Shown here piece after piece: positions 3,695-53,909 of a stretch of DNA of 64,000 bases; position 1 is the first letter of the stretch, and every line of letters starts with the position of its first letter. Below the pieces are notes generated by a model. That model was not told where the DNA came from. It worked only from the letters and a program-made list of their open reading frames with translations, and did not search any database. The position numbers and the translations under genes are program-made. The stretch is from Actinomycetota bacterium (GTDB taxonomy: Bacteria > Actinomycetota > Acidimicrobiia > IMCC26256 > PALSA-610), in contig SXHN01000079.1 in assembly GCA_005773635.1 (NCBI GenBank), positions 36,568 to 100,567 on the forward strand, read 5' to 3'.

Positions 3695-5374
3695 TCAGCA
3701 ATTGGTGATCGCGCCGGTTTCCGCCCCTTGCGCGAGCTTCGCGTACTTCGCGAGGAAGCCTGAGGTATATAGCGGTTCGGGGATCTTCCAGTGCTTGCGG
3801 CGCTCAACGAGTGTGGCTTCATCCACCATGAGATCGATCGTGTAGTTCTCGGCGTCGATCAGGATGCGGTCGCCGTCTTCGACGAACGCGATCGGGCCAC
3901 CATCGACTGCTTCCGGGGCAACGTGACCCACGCAATACCCGTGCGTGCCTCCCGAGAAGCGACCGTCGGTAATGAGTGCTGCGTCTGCGCCGCGGCCAGC
4001 GCCTTTCATTGCGCCAGTTACCGCCAGCATCTCGCGCATGCCGGGCCCTCCCTTCGGGCCCTCGTAGCGAATCACCACGATGTCTCCGGCATTGATCTTG
4101 CCCGCGAGAATTGCTTCCATTGCGAGTGGTTCGCCGTTGAACACCCGTGCCGTGCCGTCGAAGTGCAGGTTGTCAATACCTGCCACCTTGACGACGGCGC
4201 CTTTGGGGGCCATCGTGCCGTGGAGAATCGCGATACCGCCCTGCGCGTGGATTGGCGCGTTCAGTGGATGCACCACATCGCCATCGGCGCCAGGAGGCGC
4301 GAGTGCTTCGAGGTTCTCCGCCATCGTTTTGCCGGTCACGGTCATGCAGTCGCCGTGCAGCAATCCCTCATCGAGCAGTATTTTCATGATGACGGGGATC
4401 CCGCCAATTCGGTCGACGTCGGTCATGTGATATTTGCCGTGCGGTTTGGTGTCGGCGATATGGGGGACACGCTTGCCAATCTTGTTGAAATCAGCAAGCT
4501 CGAGTTCGACGCGGGCTTCGTGCGCGATCGCCAACAGGTGCAGCACTGCGTTGGTGGAACCTCCGAGTGCCATCACCACTGCAATTGCGTTCTCGAACGC
4601 TTCCTTCGTCATGATCTGGCGAGCGCGTAAATCTCGTTCGATGAGGTTCATCACGGCACGACCCGATTCGTACGCGTAGTCGTCGCGACGACGGTCGACT
4701 GCGGGCGCGGATGCTGACCCTGGCAAACTCATACCGAGTGCTTCGCCTACCGCCGCCATCGTGTTGGCCGTGAACATTCCCGCACAGCTTCCCTCAGTGG
4801 GGCATGCACGTTTTTCGATCTCACCGAGTTCGTTGAGGCTGAGAGTTCCGGCGGCGCACGCGCCGACTGCTTCGAACACGCTCACGATATCGAGTGCTTG
4901 ATCTTTGTAGTGCCCTGGCAGAATCGAGCCGCCGTACATGAAGATGCTCGGTAGATTGAGGCGCGCCGCGGCCATCAACATTCCGGGCAGGCTTTTGTCG
5001 CATCCTGCGAACGTCACCAATGCATCGAGCCGTTCTGAATGCATGACGCATTCGACCGAGTCGGCAATGATCTCTCGACTTGCAAGGGAGCCCCGCATGC
5101 CCTCATGCCCCATCGAAATACCGTCGCTTACTGCGATTGTGACGAATTCGAGTGGGAAACCACCAGCGTCTTTGACGCCGCGTTTCGAAGCTTTCGCAAG
5201 TCGGTCGAGCGGAAGATTGCAGGGCGTCACCTCGTTCCAACTCGAAGCCACTCCAACCTGGGCCTTACCCCAGTCGTCGTCGCCCATTCCTACCGCTCGA
5301 AGCATGGCGCGGGCCGGGGCGCGTTCCATCCCGTCGGTGACTTCGTGGCTCATGGGTTTCATCGGGTTCGACAT
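3695..5374 (-). CDS. ilvD: Dihydroxy-acid dehydratase
   Basis: Near full-length similarity to IlvD, including the [27 protein letters not shown] and [10 protein letters not shown] motifs. The start is set at [15 protein letters not shown]; the longer ORF-track extension would overlap the upstream peptidase gene. Confidence 0.9.
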
Positions 5375-5408
5375 GGCCGTCAAGGGTAGTAGCGGCGCTC
5401 GCTGATCT

Positions 5409-7373
5409 CTACATGAGATTGCGTGCGAAGAAATCGAGGATGATTTCTGCACGCTGTACTCGGTGTTTTGGAGCGCCGCTGCGCGACAGTTCGTGACCCT
5501 CCCCAGGGAATCGCCAGAACTCGGGGGTCTTGCCGAGCAGACGCAGTGCGACAAACAGTTCTTCGGCTTGGTCGATGGGGCAGCGAAGATCGTTCTCACT
5601 GTGGAGTATTAACATCGGAGTGTTGATATTGCGTACGTAGGTCATCGGGGAGCAACGCACGTACGCCTCGCGGGCATCGAGATGCGAAGCTCCGACTTGT
5701 TCGATGAATGATGTTGCGACGTCGGAGTTGTGCTCTTCGGTTATGAGGTTGTTCACCGAGCGTTCGCTACAAGCGGCGCGGAATCGGTCGGTGTGGCCCA
5801 CGATCCACGTTGTGAGGTAGCCGCCGTAGCTTCCGCCTTGAATTCCGAGCCGGGTGCCATCGATCCAGTCGAACCGCGCGACCGCGGTGTCGACGCATGC
5901 CATCACATCATCGAAGTCGATGCCGCCCCAACCGGTGCCAGGATCCACTTCGCATTCGGGCCACCGAACCGCTCGACCCCACGCCTCTGAATATCCAGCA
6001 GATCCCCGAGGGTTGCAATACAGCACTGCGAATCCCGTGGCGACTTGTGTTTGAAATTCGTCGAAGAGTTTGTGGGTGTATTGCGTGAACGGCCCGCCGT
6101 GGATATTGAGAATGGTGGGAAACGGACCGGTGCCGTCGGGTCGGATCGCCCAACAATCGACGACCTCGCCGTCGGTGCTGGTTGCGGTGTATGCGATTGG
6201 TATTGCTGCTTCGCTTTGGGTAGCTGTTTGAAATTGTTGCGTGATCGTCGAGCACTGCGTGTGGTTGACGAAGAGTTCAGGCAATGACGATGCATCTCCG
6301 ACGATCGTGGCGAGCACGCCTGCGCGTGAGTCGAAATCGATGACGCAACGGTCGCCGCTCACGACGTCGACTATTTCAGTTGAGCGGATATTCGCCTGAG
6401 CAAGCGCATTCGAACCGCGATTCTCGTATGCAAATAGGAGATGGTCTGGGTCTTGCCACAACAACAACCGATTGTTGCCTGGGGGCGTGCAATTGCGGTC
6501 GAGTGCGGACGTGATGGTTCGTTGTGTTTGGTCACCCAGATCGATGACGACGACGTGGTTGTGGCACGGCCCCGCGAGTGGCGTCGCGTAACGAAAAGCC
6601 GCGATGCGTTCGCTGTCGGGCGACCAAATAGGTGATGCGTACATCGAGTCGGTTGGCGTGATGACTCCGACTGCTTCAGTCGCTAGGTCAAGGACCCATA
6701 GATCGCGCAGAAGGTCGAGATCCCAAGTTGTATGACGAGCCGAAGCAAACGCGATCTTGCAGCCGTCAGGAGACCACGAGATTTCGTTCACATCGAACGG
6801 ACCAAGGGTGCGCGCTATCAGAGTGGCTCCTGGTCGTGCCGCAACGGTGAACGCGCGGGATGGGCGATCGAAGAGCCATCCTTCGCCATCGAGGCGCGAG
6901 TAGAACCGTTCGATCTTGCGGGCGGGAGTGTCCTTGGGCTCGCGCGATTCACCGGGCGCGGCGTAGTAGGCGAGGTCTGGATCTCGGGCGACGAACGCGA
7001 GCGTTGACCCATCAGGAGACCAAGCGAGCTCGGTTGGACCTTCTGGCGGCGTGCAAATTTCGGTGACTTCAAGTGTTGCTATGTCGATGAGCGCCAGCTT
7101 GGTAACAGCATCATCGTCGCCGAGCGCTCGTAAGGTGCAAGCGACGACCGTGCCGTTGGGCGACCATCGTCCGAGGCTGCAGGCGAATCCGGACGGGGAG
7201 ATTGTGGTCAGTTCGCCGGTGGCTGTCGCGCACCGACGCAACGCAGATTCGTAACGATTTTCTGCGCTGTTCATTGTGGTTTCGGCGAAGATCACCGAAG
7301 TTCCGTCGGGGCTCACTTGTACATCGGTGAGCGAAATGAGATCGGTGATGTGCTGCGCTGTGAATCCCGCCAC
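5409..7373 (-). CDS. S9-family serine peptidase (prolyl oligopeptidase / acylaminoacyl-peptidase type)
   Basis: N-terminal beta-propeller repeats (WSPDG repeats) and a C-terminal alpha/beta-hydrolase domain with the GGSYGG nucleophile elbow and His/Asp triad context. Confidence 0.85.
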
Positions 7374-10225: not shown

Positions 10226-11530
10226 CTAGTGCTCGGTTGCGTCGATTGCTGCTAGCTCGCCGGTGACGAGATCGATGACTGAGGTTGCAATGTGCACTCG
10301 GTTGCGTCCTTGACGTTTTGCTGTGAGTAACGCCGAGTCGGCTGCGGCTAGCACAGTTGCAAGGGAACACCCACTAGCGCAGTCAGCGATGCCGAATGAC
10401 GCTCCGATTTCCGGTAGCCGCGCAGCAGCCAATGTGCGGGTGAAATGTTTGCGGACGCGCTCAACTGCTCGCTCGGCTTGTGCAGCGGTGCAATCGCTGA
10501 TCACCATCACGAATTCATCACCGCCGAAACGAGCGACGAGATCTTCGGGATGCAACGCGCTGCGCATGGCCTCTGCGAACGCGCGCAACGTTTGATCGCC
10601 TACCTCATGCCCGTGGGTGTCGTTGATGGCTTTGAAGTCGTCGAGATCGGTGATCGCTACCGCAAATGGAGTGTTGGCATCGACAAGGTCGCGAACATGG
10701 GTATCGAGGCTGCGGCGGTTGTAGGCGCCGGTGAGTGGGTCGGTTGCGGCACGTTCGTTGGCGTGTTCGACGGCGCGTAGCAGCGATATCCGGCCCGCGG
10801 CTTGTGACGCGAGTTCCTCGAATCGAACAATGTCTTCGGACGTTGCGGCATCGTCGGGAGTCGACGTGATGTGCAGCACTCCGACGTTGCGGCCCGCGAC
10901 AGTGAGCGGAACGCAGACCGATGAAATTTCTCCGCAGCTTCGCCCGCGAAGATACGCGCAGGCGTCGATGGCCTCGCTGGAGTCGAACGTCTCGGTGTGC
11001 CCATGCTGTACGGCTCGACAGCCGCGAAGTGTCGTGACGTTGCATCCTGCGCCGTCTGCAACAGTGGGTGTGCTCGCAGCACACGCGAGCTGATCGGTTC
11101 CCGTTTCGTCGACGAGTAGCAACTGGCCAGGTTTTGTCGGAACGATTTCCTGTATTGCTCTGGCGACGACATCTACAACTCCAGACTCTGACGTCGTTGC
11201 TTCGATTGCCCGCCAAAGCCGAGCATCGAACGTACGCCGCGCGAGGCTGTGTTCGAGGCGGGCGATCCGAGCGTCGCGTTGGGCGACCTTGCTGGTGTAT
11301 TGCGCGTGGACCGGCCGTTGAATCAGCCAGGTGTTGAGCGCGATGATGGTCGCGATTCCAGCCACAATCGTGAGCGCCAGGGGAATGGCTCCACTCGATG
11401 GTGCCACGCCACCGATGAGCATGCCGACGGCGAACGACGCGATGGAACCCGTCGTGATGCCGAGGAACAAGTTGGTGTTGGTGTTGGTGCTCTGAGGTTG
11501 CATCGTGAGCGATCCTGATGAAGCGTCCAA
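10226..11530 (-). CDS. Membrane-anchored diguanylate cyclase (TM, coiled-coil, Cys-rich GAF-like sensor, GGDEF)
   Basis: The GGDEF motif is present exactly (RFGGDEFVMV), with the upstream RxxD I-site region. The N-terminus has hydrophobic helices. Confidence 0.85.
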   Translation of the reverse strand: MDASSGSLTMQPQSTNTNTNLFLGITTGSIASFAVGMLIGGVAPSSGAIPLALTIVAGIATIIALNTWLIQRPVHAQYTSKVAQRDARIARLEHSLARRTFDARLWRAIEATTSESGVVDVVARAIQEIVPTKPGQLLLVDETGTDQLACAASTPTVADGAGCNVTTLRGCRAVQHGHTETFDSSEAIDACAYLRGRSCGEISSVCVPLTVAGRNVGVLHITSTPDDAATSEDIVRFEELASQAAGRISLLRAVEHANERAATDPLTGAYNRRSLDTHVRDLVDANTPFAVAITDLDDFKAINDTHGHEVGDQTLRAFAEAMRSALHPEDLVARFGGDEFVMVISDCTAAQAERAVERVRKHFTRTLAAARLPEIGASFGIADCASGCSLATVLAAADSALLTAKRQGRNRVHIATSVIDLVTGELAAIDATEH

Positions 11531-11678
11531 AGTGGGCGGCGGATGAAATTGCGCTTCTACTGATCGGTCACGTGACCGTGGTTCTGACCTATGGTGTCAC
11601 GTAGTGCACTATTCGAGGTATTTGTGCCATTGCGTATTGGAGTAGACGAATCTCGAGCTGTGGTCTATACTCCGGCCG

Positions 11679-11717
11679 ATGTTGTTTTCCACGACCCTCG
11701 TAGTAGTAGTTACTTAG
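11679..11717 (+). CDS. ilvB leader peptide MLFSTTLVVVVT (branched-chain amino-acid attenuation)
   Basis: A 12-codon ORF with four consecutive Val codons plus Leu/Thr codons lies about 95 nt upstream of ilvB and is followed by alternative hairpins and a terminator. Confidence 0.6.
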   Translation: MLFSTTLVVVVT

Positions 11718-11750
11718 CGCACGGGCCGTCTCGCGTCCGTGCGCTGCCAA

Positions 11751-11776
11751 CCCCTCCAGTCGGAGGGGTTTTTGTT
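11751..11776 (+). terminator. Intrinsic terminator of the ilvB attenuator
   Basis: cccctcc-agtc-ggagggg followed by ttttt. It is preceded by a competing hairpin, gcacgg...ccgtgc (11719-11740), directly after the leader stop codon. Confidence 0.55.
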
Positions 11777-11810
11777 TGCCAAAAATGTTCACCCCAACCG
11801 GGAGCATCAC

Positions 11811-13544
11811 ATGAAACCAACTGGAAAAATCACAGGCGCCCAAGCCCTCATCCGGAGCTTGGAAATGGAAGGCGTCGAAGTCATGTTCGGCCTTCCGGGC
11901 GGGGCGATTCTCCCTGTATACGACCCGCTGATCGACTCATCGATTCGCCACATTCTCGTGCGTCATGAACAAGGCGCGGGGCACATGGCAAGCGGATACG
12001 CGCATGCGACCGGCCGCCCAGGCGTGGCGATGGTCACGAGTGGCCCGGCGGCGACCAACATTGTGACGCCGTTGGCGGATGCCTACCTCGACTCAGTGCC
12101 GATGGTGGTTATTACGGGACAGGTGCCATACGCCGCGATCGGGACCGACGCGTTTCAAGAGTGCGACACGGTCGGCATCACGATGCCCGTCACGAAGCAC
12201 AACTGGTTGGTCACCGATGCCCGCGACATTCCCACCATCATCCGCGAAGCCTTTCACGTCGCTACGACGGGTCGCCCGGGCCCTGTGTTGGTCGACTTCC
12301 CGAAGGATGTCGCGACGCAAATGATGGATTGGTATTGGCCAGATGGCGTGGATATGCCTGGTTACAAGCCAACTACCAAGGGACATCCGAAGCAGGTGAA
12401 AGATGCGGCGCGACTGATTGTTGCCGCGCAACGTCCTGTTATCTACGCCGGTGGCGGAATCTTGAAGGCGCGCGCTGCCGATGCGTTGAAGACATTTGCT
12501 GAGCTCACCGGGATTCCGGTCGTGACCACGCTGATGGCGCGCGGCGCGTTCCCAGACAAGCATGAACTGTGTCTCGGTATGCCCGGGATGCACGGCAATT
12601 ACACGGCGATCACTGCGCTGCAGCAAAGCGATTTGCTCATCACCTTGGGCGCTCGCTTTGACGACCGGGTTACCGGCAAGGTTGGCGCGTTTGCGCCCGA
12701 CGCGAAAATCATTCACGTCGATATTGATCCTGCGGAGCAAGGCAAGGTGCGTCGCCCTGATGTGCCGATCGTCGGAGACTGTAAGCAGGTCATCGAAGAA
12801 CTCATCAAAGCGACGAAGGCCGAGATCAGCAAACACGCCGCAGCCAATATCAGTGAGTGGAAAGCGACGATTCAGCAATGGCAGCTGGACTTTCCGCTGT
12901 ATTACGAACAAGAAGAAGGTGGCACGCTGAAGCCGCAGTTTGTGATCGAAAAACTCCGTGAAAACACGCCTGATGATTGCATCCTCGCCTCTGGCGTGGG
13001 GCAGCATCAGATGTGGGCGAGCCAGCACTGGCAGTTCAATTACCCCTACACCTGGATCAACTCGGGTGGCCTCGGCACGATGGGATACTCAGTGCCAGCA
13101 GCGATTGGTGCGAAGGTTGGTCGTCCCGACCGCATGGTGTGGGCCGTCGATGGTGATGGTTGCTTCCAGATGACCGCGCAGGAACTGGTCACCGCGGCTG
13201 CGGAACGCATTCCGGTGAAGATCGCGATTCTCAACAACGCGTATCTCGGCATGGTGCGCCAATGGCAGGAACTCTTCTACGAGGAGCGATACAGCGAGGT
13301 GTACCTGTCGCCTGACCTCCCCGACTACGTGAAATGGGCTGAGGCCATGGGCTGCGTCGGTATGCGCTGTGACAACGCCGACGACGTGGTTGCCACTATT
13401 GAAAAGGCCAACGCCATCAACGATCGTCCAGTCGTGATCGACTTCCGCACGGACTATCGCGAAAAGGTCTACCCGATGGTCGCCGCGGGGACATCTAACG
13501 ACGACGTCATCCTCCATCCTGCCCTCAACGAGAAATCTCGATAG
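11811..13544 (+). CDS. ilvB: Acetolactate synthase large subunit
   Basis: TPP enzyme with an AHAS-like N-terminus ([32 protein letters not shown]) and the C-terminal [10 protein letters not shown] motif. The start is at the internal ATG with an upstream GGAG. Confidence 0.9.
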
Positions 13545-13546
13545 CC

Positions 13547-14080
13547 ATGGCCTATAACGCTCGTCATCACATTTTGTCAGTCCTCGTCGAGAATAAAGCA
13601 GGCGTACTCACTCGCGTCGCGGCGTTGTTTTCTCGACGAGCGTTCAACATTGTGTCGCTCGCAGTCAGTCCAACTGAAGACGAACGGTTTTCGCGCATGA
13701 CCATCGTGGTCGACGCAGATGCATCGCCGTTGGAACAAATCGTGAAACAACTCAACAAACTGATCCCCGTGATCAAGATCAGTGAGATCGCGCACAGTGA
13801 GGGGGTCGAGCGTGAGATGATGTTGCTTACGTTGAAAGCCGGTTCGGAAACTCGTTCGCAGGTGACGGAGCTTTCATCAATCTTTGATGCCAAGATCATC
13901 GACGTTGGCTACGAAGCGATGACGATGATGGTGGTTGGAGAGCCTGACAAACTCGACGCGTTTAGTGACTTGGTGCGGCCGTTTGGCATTCTCGAAATGC
14001 AACGAACTGGCCGCATCGCGATGCCAAAACTGGCCCGTCAACCGGTGAAACTTCGCGCCGTCAGGGCGGCCCGAGGCTGA
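13547..14080 (+). CDS. ilvN: Acetolactate synthase small (regulatory) subunit
   Basis: ACT domain ([28 protein letters not shown]) immediately downstream of ilvB. Confidence 0.9.
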
Positions 14081-14139: not shown

Positions 14140-15168
14140 ATGGCCGCAACTGTGTACTACGACAAAGACGCCGATTCGGCGCTGCTCGCCACCAAGAAGG
14201 TAGCGATTCTGGGATACGGCTCTCAAGGCCACGCCCACGCGTTGAATTTGAAAGAATCTGGTGTCGACGTCATCGTCGGGTTGCGGGAAGGGTCGCCTTC
14301 CAAGGCCAAGGCCGAAGCTGCAGGGCTCAAGGTGCTACCAACCGGCGAAGCGGTGGCGGCCTCGGACATTGTGATGGTGTTGCTCCCCGACACTGAGCAG
14401 CGCCATGTGTTCACCTCCGACATTGCTCCCAACTTGAAGTCGGGCGCATCATTGGCGTTCGCTCACGGTCTCAACATCCACTTCGACCTCATCAAGCCTG
14501 CCGCCGACGTCGACGTTTGGATGATCGCGCCGAAAGGGCCTGGCCATCTCGTACGCCGCACCTATGAAGAAGGCGGCGGCGTGCCGTGTTTGGTTGCGGT
14601 CGCCCAAGACTCAACGGGCAAAGCCAAAGAAATTGCGTTGGCCTACGCGCAAGCGATCGGTGGCGGTCGCGCTGGAATTCTGAACACCACGTTCCAAGAA
14701 GAAACCGAAACCGATCTTTTCGGTGAACAGGTCGTGTTGTGTGGCGGTTTGGTCGAACTCATCAAGAATGGTTTTGAGACTTTGGTGGAAGCGGGCTATC
14801 AGCCAGAGTCGGCCTACTTCGAAACGTTGCACGAAGTGAAGCTCATCGTTGATCTCATCTATGAAGGTGGTATTGGTGCGATGCATTACAGCATCAGTGA
14901 CACCGCGGAGTACGGCGACTCCACCCGCGGTCCGCGTATCGTCACCAAAGCCACCAAAGCGGAGATGAAGAAGATCCTGAGCGAGATCCAAACTGGCGAG
15001 TTCGCTCGTGAGTGGATTAGCGAAAACGACAACGGTCGCCCAAATTTCAATCGGTATCGCACCGAGACCGACGCGCACCCGATCGAGAAGGTCGGTGCGG
15101 AACTTCGTGCAATGATGCCGTGGATTTCTGCGGGTAAGACCCGTCCTCAGGACGCGTCTGGCGGTTGA
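14140..15168 (+). CDS. ilvC: Ketol-acid reductoisomerase
   Basis: Class I KARI: [17 protein letters not shown] Rossmann region and conserved C-terminal knotted domain. An AGGAG RBS lies upstream. Confidence 0.9.
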
Positions 15169-53705: not shown

Positions 53706-53758
53706 CCCGTTTTGTACGCGAGCTATGCACTGAGGTGCGAACGGCGTGAAACGAAACT

Positions 53759-53778
53759 GGCCACCCGTGAGGGTGGCC
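53759..53778. terminator. Bidirectional hairpin between the convergent DMT transporter and bS22 genes
   Basis: ggccaccc-gtga-gggtggcc perfect 8-bp stem; a second GC palindrome ggggcccc lies at about 53797-53806. Confidence 0.4.
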
Positions 53779-53807
53779 AGTGAGCGGCTTCAAGTTGGGG
53801 CCCCGGA

Positions 53808-53909
53808 CTACTTACCTTGAGTCCTGCGCTGCCAACGCGTCTTTTTGAGAAGCTTCTTGTGCTTCTTCTTTCGCATGCGCTTGCGGCGCTTCTTGATCAG
53901 GCTTCCCAT
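53808..53909 (-). CDS. Ribosomal protein bS22 (33 aa)
   Basis: [33 protein letters not shown] is highly similar to mycobacterial bS22 as recalled ([21 protein letters not shown]...). The ORF-track 65-aa call has a spurious 5' extension. Confidence 0.7.
   Translation of the reverse strand: [33 protein letters not shown]

Follow-up and report, generated by a model that had tools for sequence, protein, structure and literature searches.

A compact leader with a predicted role in ilvBNC attenuation in the class Acidimicrobiia: rare valine codons, a hairpin that holds the stop codon and an adjoining terminator

Leader-peptide attenuation of ilvB in Escherichia coli is textbook knowledge, and attenuation in the ilvBNC leader of Corynebacterium glutamicum was reportedly shown by Morbach in 2000. 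Leader-peptide attenuation of ilvB was predicted across the Actinobacteria in 2005 (PMC1262725), and the Corynebacterium ilvBNC leader has been re-described as the ilvB-II motif (Narunsky 2023, PMC10272879). The attenuator of Mycobacterium tuberculosis ilvB1, which comprises a uORF (upstream open reading frame) rich in codons for branched-chain amino acids, a GUA regulatory codon and a short terminated transcript, was validated experimentally in 2026, and its induction was lost after an LVVI to AAAA change (Nat Microbiol, PMC13236596). Here, we describe the ilvBNC leader in a 64-kb stretch of DNA (the window) from an actinobacterium of the class Acidimicrobiia (contig SXHN01000079.1). The leader lies within positions 11531-11810, which make up the entire intergenic space between a divergent GGDEF diguanylate-cyclase gene (10226-11530, - strand) and ilvB, and it consists of a short leader ORF, a hairpin (A) and an intrinsic terminator (T). 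On comparative sequence grounds, we consider it likely that these parts form a ribosome-mediated transcription attenuator that would set ilvBNC expression by the supply of charged Val-tRNA and, secondarily, of Leu- and Ile-tRNA. This estimate refers to the attenuator function as a whole; the sub-step in which a folded hairpin A would act on T is weighed apart from it.

The ilvBNC leader beside described attenuators

All parts of the element lie on the + strand. The leader ORF (11679-11717), read directly from the DNA, has 12 codons followed by a TAG stop at 11715-11717 (ATG TTG TTT TCC ACG ACC CTC GTA GTA GTA GTT ACT TAG) and encodes MLFSTTLVVVVT. Its candidate sensor codons, CTC GTA GTA GTA GTT (11697-11711), specify Leu and four Val, and codon counts mark the three GTA codons among them as rare. 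Hairpin A (11715-11746), defined by its inverted-repeat arms, by RNAfold and by covariation, contains the TAG stop within its stem. Its perfect 9-nt arms, AGCGCACGG at 11716-11724 and CCGTGCGCT at 11737-11745, are extended by RNAfold to a 14-bp stem spanning 11715-11746 (-22.3 kcal/mol), so that the whole TAG is paired; the "loop" is itself nearly all paired in the window, with only a UCU triloop left. A spacer of two nucleotides, CC (11747-11748, read directly), leads to terminator T (11749-11777), which was recognized by a terminator scan, as an inverted repeat and by covariation. Its arms, AACCCCTCC (11749-11757) and GGAGGGGTT (11762-11770), form a 9-bp GC-rich stem around an AGTC loop and are followed by TTTGTTT (-16.2 kcal/mol); the first two T of the U-tract TTTTTGTTT double as the last two pairs of the stem. 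The fold of the 131-nt leader was better than that of 200 out of 200 shuffled sequences (z = -4.15).

The closest experimentally studied relative is the ilvB1NC leader of M. tuberculosis, with which we compared the element by published description. The two share the phylum and the operon, an LVVI-type core with GUA, a Rho-independent U-tract terminator upstream of ilvB and, according to the published model, a hairpin after the uORF that is masked by a ribosome at the stop codon (PMC13236596). The M. tuberculosis leader is longer, with the U-tract ending at +126 and ilvB beginning at +168, as against about +99 and about +133 here, and its uORF is classed as "isolated" and not as leaderless, which sets it apart from the Acidimicrobiia leaders. 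Its authors also describe mutually exclusive folds, whereas we found none in the Acidimicrobiia element.

Leaders of the C. glutamicum type have an L-V-V-V-T core in MTIIRLVVVTARRLP, encoded by CUU GUA GUA GUA ACC, and the comparison with Corynebacterium that had been drawn from the sequence alone is apt in that the GUA GUA GUA codons are shared. As predicted for the Acidimicrobiia element, the leader peptide of Corynebacterium ilvB-II is made without a ribosome-binding site, and there are two separate hairpins, P1 and P2, of which P2 is the terminator, with arms resembling CCCUCG/CGAGGG. The layouts differ in how the uORF meets the first hairpin. In Corynebacterium the uORF runs about five codons past the Thr codon into P1, and P1 encloses the Val codons, whereas in Acidimicrobiia the stop, directly after Thr, is placed at the base of the hairpin, which does not include the Val codons. 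The ilvB-II consensus, with a uORF that is enclosed by P1 and terminates within it, does not describe the element. When a profile of the family was compared by nhmmer with nine ilvB-II sequences, some of them visibly corrupted, matches reached at most 3.4 bits and covered the CCTCGTAGTAGT codons only; given the corruption, this is a weak test. In three Corynebacterium entries (NZ_JVY01000009, NZ_JIAH01000006 and NZ_LZMN01000041), whose text is partly corrupted, the uORF appears to end in GUA GUA GUG CCC UAG, and a hairpin GGGGC..GCCCC directly follows the UAG, a layout like that of Acidimicrobiia with the stop at the hairpin base.

With the E. coli ivbL (ilvBN) and trp leaders, the element shares a leader-peptide run of regulatory codons, a U-tract terminator and a stop codon placed such that a terminating ribosome disrupts an upstream hairpin. 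The use of rare codons for sensitivity likewise has a counterpart in the CUA codons of the E. coli leu leader. In enteric leaders, four regions take part in pairing, which gives a 1:2 hairpin and an overlapping 2:3 antiterminator, and the ORFs carry a Shine-Dalgarno site; here there are two non-overlapping hairpins, and the ORF is leaderless by its promoter geometry and far shorter, at 12 codons.

A cmscan search of 11000-12300, with E values up to 10, returned only Rfam RF02502 (Atu_C8) and two chance-level matches, and no T-box, riboswitch (for example for ppGpp) or ilvB motif. The Atu_C8 match (11684-11783; 35.1 bits, E = 5e-5) falls below the gathering threshold of 50 bits. Atu_C8 resembles the element in having a hairpin GCGCA..UGCGC, a short spacer and a terminator; it differs in being annotated as a small RNA (sRNA) of Rhizobiales, in another phylum, and in a reading frame that continues into the hairpin. 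The Atu_C8 consensus reads AUG AUU AUU CUU GUG GUG, which would encode MIILVV, followed by hairpin and terminator, and from this sequence Atu_C8 itself looks like an ilv-type leader-peptide attenuator and not a free-standing sRNA. Given that the family profile does not match ilvB-II, by the weak test above, and that the Atu_C8 match is below threshold, we file the Acidimicrobiia element as a compact, new-lineage member of the known actinobacterial ilvB leader-peptide attenuators.

Conservation of the leader ORF, its codons and its hairpins

Relatives were collected by a protein scan with IlvB, keeping one genome per species, which gave 80 loci with 70-88% IlvB identity, all from Acidimicrobiia or from unclassified Actinomycetota metagenome-assembled genomes. 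An ORF scan found an ORF of 9-18 codons about 100-190 nt upstream of ilvB in 76 of the 80 loci, ending in each case with three to five Ile/Leu/Val codons that are usually followed by Thr and the stop. Directly after the relatives' leader ORF stand a CGCACG...CGTGCG hairpin and then a CCTCC...GGAGG terminator. The other four loci were matched by a covariance model that had not been trained on them (55-83 bits, with the same codons), so that the leader pattern M-x(4-10)-[ILV]3-5-T-stop is found in 80 of 80 loci. Of 81 real upstream regions, 76 carried the family signature, compared with 0.4 of 81 after shuffling, and within the intergenic space itself, a run of at least five Ile/Leu/Val codons in an ATG ORF of 8-25 codons arose in 0.6% of dinucleotide shuffles of 11531-11810. 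A metagenome search with a DNA-only pattern, confined to the ORF end plus the 5' arm of A, returned at least 120 matches, 104 of which had enough downstream sequence to be usable. Among the matches listed, an IlvB homologue with 58-95% identity lay downstream on the same strand, 59-188 nt away, in 100 of these 104, which argues that the element is ilvB-specific and widespread. The comparative evidence is decisive: the element is not a product of chance.

Within the window, the covariance model gave one significant full-length match; a second copy, for example before ilvD (3695-5599), was sought with this model across the 64 kb and none was found. The next match, at 53748-53814 (- strand, 18.6 bits), comprises the terminator half only. 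The terminator at this site reads CTGGCCACCC-TCAC-GGGTGGCCAG followed by TTTCGTTTC, and this style of stem and interrupted U-tract suggests the usual terminator form of the genome.

The Val codons of the leaders are unlike those of the genes that they precede. GTA accounts for 108 of 181 Val codons (60%) in the leaders and for 0.9% of the 3646 Val codons in the relatives' ilvB genes, a 66-fold enrichment, and it makes up 4 of 92 Val codons (4%) in the window's own ilvBNC. At least one GTA is present in 76 of 77 leaders. Counted from the stop, GTA occurs at codon -4 in 55 loci and at codon -3 in 40, and because these positions are one codon apart, they point to a signal at the level of codons and not to an RNA motif at a fixed distance. 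The N-terminal half of the peptide and the length of the ORF vary freely among relatives while the Ile/Leu/Val run is kept, a pattern to be expected where nothing but the sensor codons and the fact of their translation is important. TAG serves as the stop in 64 of 77 leader ORFs. We predict that the leader ORF is translated. The tiny Val-rich ORF at 11679-11717 had been singled out in an earlier, sequence-only reading, and its sequence is as stated there. That reading had also raised the case of hairpins conserved without the ORF; as described above, the ORF is kept in all 80 related loci.

The leader ORF of the window shares its frame with ilvB, and a single stop, the TAG at 11715, separates the two (11679-11813), which is why the list of ORFs gives a GTG-started ORF of 601 amino acids from 11739. 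Stop-codon read-through from the uORF into ilvB was considered and rejected, as the corresponding offsets in relatives are not multiples of three. Since the frame is not kept in relatives, its sharing here is probably a coincidence.

Upstream of the leader ORF, the only promoter-like site in 11000-12500 is TAGACG-17 nt-TATACT (11643-11671, + strand). Its -10 hexamer is separated from the leader ATG by 7 nt, too few for a Shine-Dalgarno site. This placement recurs in the family: 69 of 73 relatives have a TTGnnn-17/18-nAnnnT promoter whose end lies 6-10 nt ahead of the start codon. Judged by this geometry, the mini-gene is probably leaderless or near-leaderless, with a predicted transcription start site at or close to its ATG.

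Both hairpins of the sequence-only reading are supported by covariation, and the second is indeed a canonical U-tract terminator. Compensatory changes were found in 7 of 8 modelled pairs of hairpin A and in 9 of 12 of T (16 of 20 in total), a level that was reached by 0 of 500 shuffles, and controls with slid partners scored far lower. The structure behind these counts was mapped from helices predicted per sequence; it replaced an RNAalifold analysis of the raw MAFFT alignment, in which misalignment of the variable A loop had left T only partly recovered. Stem A includes at least one nucleotide of the stop codon in 69 of 77 loci, and variants of the stop covary with the 3' arm of A, TAA occurring with ..GTT and TGA with ..GTT or ..GTC. 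Stem A is also conserved in sequence, GCGCACG/CGTGCGC being the commonest pair in 56-74 of 77 loci at each position. The spacer between A and T is tight across the 77 loci, at -1 to 8 nt and mostly 1-4 nt, in contrast to the A loop (6-32 nt) and to the distance from T to ilvB (8-191 nt). Together with the leaderless promoter geometry and the rare GTA signature, the stop codon inside the hairpin goes beyond what had been read from the sequence at first.

Two features of T in the family deserve mention in their own right. In every locus T is strand-asymmetric, with a CCUCC-like 5' arm that corresponds to the 16S anti-Shine-Dalgarno core and a GGAGG-like 3' arm that is a perfect Shine-Dalgarno sequence. 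A role of the 3' arm as a Shine-Dalgarno site, or of the 5' arm as an anti-Shine-Dalgarno mimic, was considered and yielded no testable regulated step. In one large subfamily (L030, L033, L037-L041, L048 and similar loci), the U-tract has a conserved interruption, GGGAGGTCG-TTyCnG-TTTTC, such that the first U run is short and a second TTTT follows 6 nt on, which is unusual for a canonical intrinsic terminator.

From ribosome position to termination

In the attenuator that we propose, transcription would start at the leader ATG or no more than 1-2 nt away from it, so that the leaderless 12-codon ORF would be translated by a 70S ribosome. Once transcribed, hairpin A would fold at once, and it may in addition make RNA polymerase pause. 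With Val in ample supply, the ribosome would travel as far as the TAG that forms part of the base of A; while this stop codon is in its A site, it would cover the entire 5' arm of the hairpin (+4 to +17 from the P site) and so keep A melted while the polymerase makes the next ~30 nt. T would then close and the transcript would end at about 11776, giving a leader RNA of ~98 nt. When charged Val-tRNA is scarce, the ribosome would stall 3-5 codons short of the stop, on the rare GTA codons. The base of A would then lie at +13 to +20 from the P site (16-20 for codon -4/-5), outside the ribosome, so that A would stay folded and the polymerase would read into ilvBNC. This direction of regulation, with read-through upon Val shortage and termination upon sufficiency, is drawn by analogy with trp and with M. 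tuberculosis ilvB1.

The geometry of the family agrees with these positions. We used constrained partition-function folding on 77 loci and placed a masking ribosome at every codon in turn, beginning at -6 and ending at the stop. A was intact as long as the ribosomal A site stood at codons -6 to -4; melting set in at -3 and progressed until A was gone at the stop. By masking as well as by position, a ribosome stalled at GTA leaves A intact and a ribosome at the stop codon disrupts it. The same profile bears on the reverse logic, in which A would be needed for efficient termination, as one of two tandem hairpins, and a stall late in the Val run would melt A and lower termination. A and T are always adjacent, and a ribosome with its A site at codon -2/-1 does melt part of A. 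However, T alone is a canonical GC-rich stem with a U-tract, the conserved GTA codons stand at -4/-3, where a stalled ribosome leaves A intact, and melting of A is more complete with the ribosome at the stop codon, so that plentiful Val would, by this logic, lead to read-through. We consider the reverse logic to have next to no chance of being correct.

Several points weigh against the attenuator proposed above, and they concern foremost the step from a folded A to a silent T, its least certain step. No antiterminator that competes with T by base pairing was found in the 77 loci, either by masked folding or by duplex energies, and the mean pairing probability of the T stem was 0.96-0.98 in every simulated state of the ribosome. 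A (11715-11746) and T (11749-11770) share no nucleotides, and they coexist in the minimum-free-energy fold. The sequence-only reading had described alternative hairpins in the classic layout and had suggested folding the leader in search of mutually exclusive antiterminator and terminator structures; this part of it did not hold, as no such structures were found and T folds in all masked states. A classical attenuator, with an antiterminator that shares nucleotides with T, would fit the order of the parts, which resembles that of the trp and ilv attenuators, and the mutually exclusive antiterminator and terminator described for the M. tuberculosis ilvB1 leader (PMC13236596). Yet the only G-rich stretches upstream of the 3' arm of T are the arms of A, and these are poor partners for its 5' arm, their pairing to it being weaker than that of shuffled sequences (p ~1e-10). 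With both hairpins separate and T folded throughout, we regard a classical attenuator as very improbable.

Duplex energies were computed against composition-matched shuffles for the pairings loop:T3, leader:T3, A3:T5, A5:T5, leader:A3 and loop:T5, in which 5 and 3 denote the arms of a hairpin. No tested alternative pairing stood clearly above the shuffles, and pairings to the 5' arm of T were depleted. These energies bear most directly on a mechanism resembling that of ilvB-II, in which the C/U-rich loop of A, or CCUC in the leader ORF, would pair with the 3' arm of T (GGAGGGG) and prevent T from forming. A pairing of the P1 loop to the right shoulder of P2a has been proposed for Corynebacterium (Narunsky et al., PMC10272879). 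In the Acidimicrobiia loci, the C/U-rich A loops and leaders form duplexes of -8.7 and -11.4 kcal/mol, respectively, with the 3' arm of T, and the leader:T3 value is slightly above that of shuffles (-11.4 vs -10.4 kcal/mol, p = 0.0025). Against this, loop:T3 is no better than with shuffled loops (p = 0.47), and in the window, where the A loop is nearly all paired, its value is -5.5, with shuffles at -6.7. The mean for T5:T3 is -17.9 kcal/mol, and T5 is both closer and free at all times. Moreover, a ribosome stalled at GTA would cover the C/U stretch of the leader, the opposite of what induction would require. A mechanism of this type seems very unlikely to us.

As A and T share no bases, T is always folded and no competitor was found, the step from "A folded" to "T silent" would not be one of base-pair competition. 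In the attenuator that we favor, this step might instead depend on adjacency: a folded A, 0-5 nt upstream of T, would block termination by steric or topological exclusion without sharing a base. For the basal pairs of T to close, deep in the polymerase's RNA exit channel and beside the RNA-DNA hybrid, A would have to unzip, and termination would be permitted when A is held open by the ribosome on the embedded stop. Adjacency would explain the tightly conserved short spacer between A and T. It comes from our own reasoning on the exit channel, and we put it forward tentatively, as possible though on balance doubtful. A literature search for a steric or adjacent-hairpin antiterminator found no published precedent. 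In addition, A can refold after the ribosome leaves the stop, and there is no equivalent of the trp 1:2 hairpin; as nothing holds A open, the model needs tight timing, which might come from polymerase pausing at A or from slow release at the rare TAG.

A further point on the same side comes from the ilvB leader of Streptomyces coelicolor, in which, as reported in PMC1262725, mutations of candidate regulatory codons had no effect on regulation. This report would also fit a leader that is not a sensor at all, with T as a constitutive partial terminator, A as a site for a protein or other factor or as a determinant of RNA stability, and an ORF that matters little. The conservation of stem A in sequence as well as in structure and the lack of an RNA antiterminator in the loci analysed would be consistent with such a leader. 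What it would leave unaccounted for is the 66-fold enrichment of rare GTA, in frame and at codons -4/-3, the Ile/Leu/Val run that is kept while N-terminal residues and ORF length vary, and a promoter placed exactly at the start codon; codon-dependent induction is, in addition, directly evidenced in M. tuberculosis (PMC13236596). We judge a leader without a sensor function to be highly improbable.

The operon, its surroundings and the place of the element in Acidimicrobiia

The ilvBNC operon that had been named downstream of the leader is unambiguous by profile matches, all on the + strand. The ribosome-binding site of ilvB, read directly, is GGGAG at 11800-11804, 6 nt before the ATG. It is followed by ilvB, for the large subunit of acetolactate synthase (11811-13544; NF005860, 942.7 bits with a cut-off of 881), ilvN, for the small subunit (13547-14080; NF008864, 205 bits), and ilvC, for ketol-acid reductoisomerase (14140-15168; NF004017, 560 bits). 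A gene for dihydroxy-acid dehydratase, ilvD (3695-5599, - strand; 847 bits), lies about 6 kb upstream on the opposite strand; its profile match begins at residue 81 of the listed ORF, and the true start is probably later. Between the divergent GGDEF gene and the leader promoter there is a perfect 12-bp palindrome, GGTCACGTGACC, at 11566-11577, with a second half-site, GTCACGT, at 11596-11602, 30 nt downstream. Situated about 40 nt from where the GGDEF gene starts and about 100 nt upstream of the promoter of the ilvB leader, the two may form a transcription-factor operator for either of the divergent genes.

A specialist would expect an ilvB attenuator in an actinobacterium, and with this element, leader-peptide attenuation of ilvBNC would reach into Acidimicrobiia, a class that is largely uncultured. 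Clean rules emerge from 80 genomes and, among the matches listed, about 100 metagenome contigs: a leaderless ORF of 9-18 codons, GTA 3-4 codons before the stop, a stop paired in the next hairpin and a terminator right beside that hairpin. They allow the annotation of an element that is invisible to ORF callers and has no Rfam match above threshold. The layout of two hairpins without base-pair competition makes the element a good minimal system for how the position of a ribosome is signalled to a terminator. Adjacency, if true, might also explain other two-hairpin ilv leaders for which an antiterminator is hard to draw, such as Corynebacterium ilvB-II and Atu_C8.

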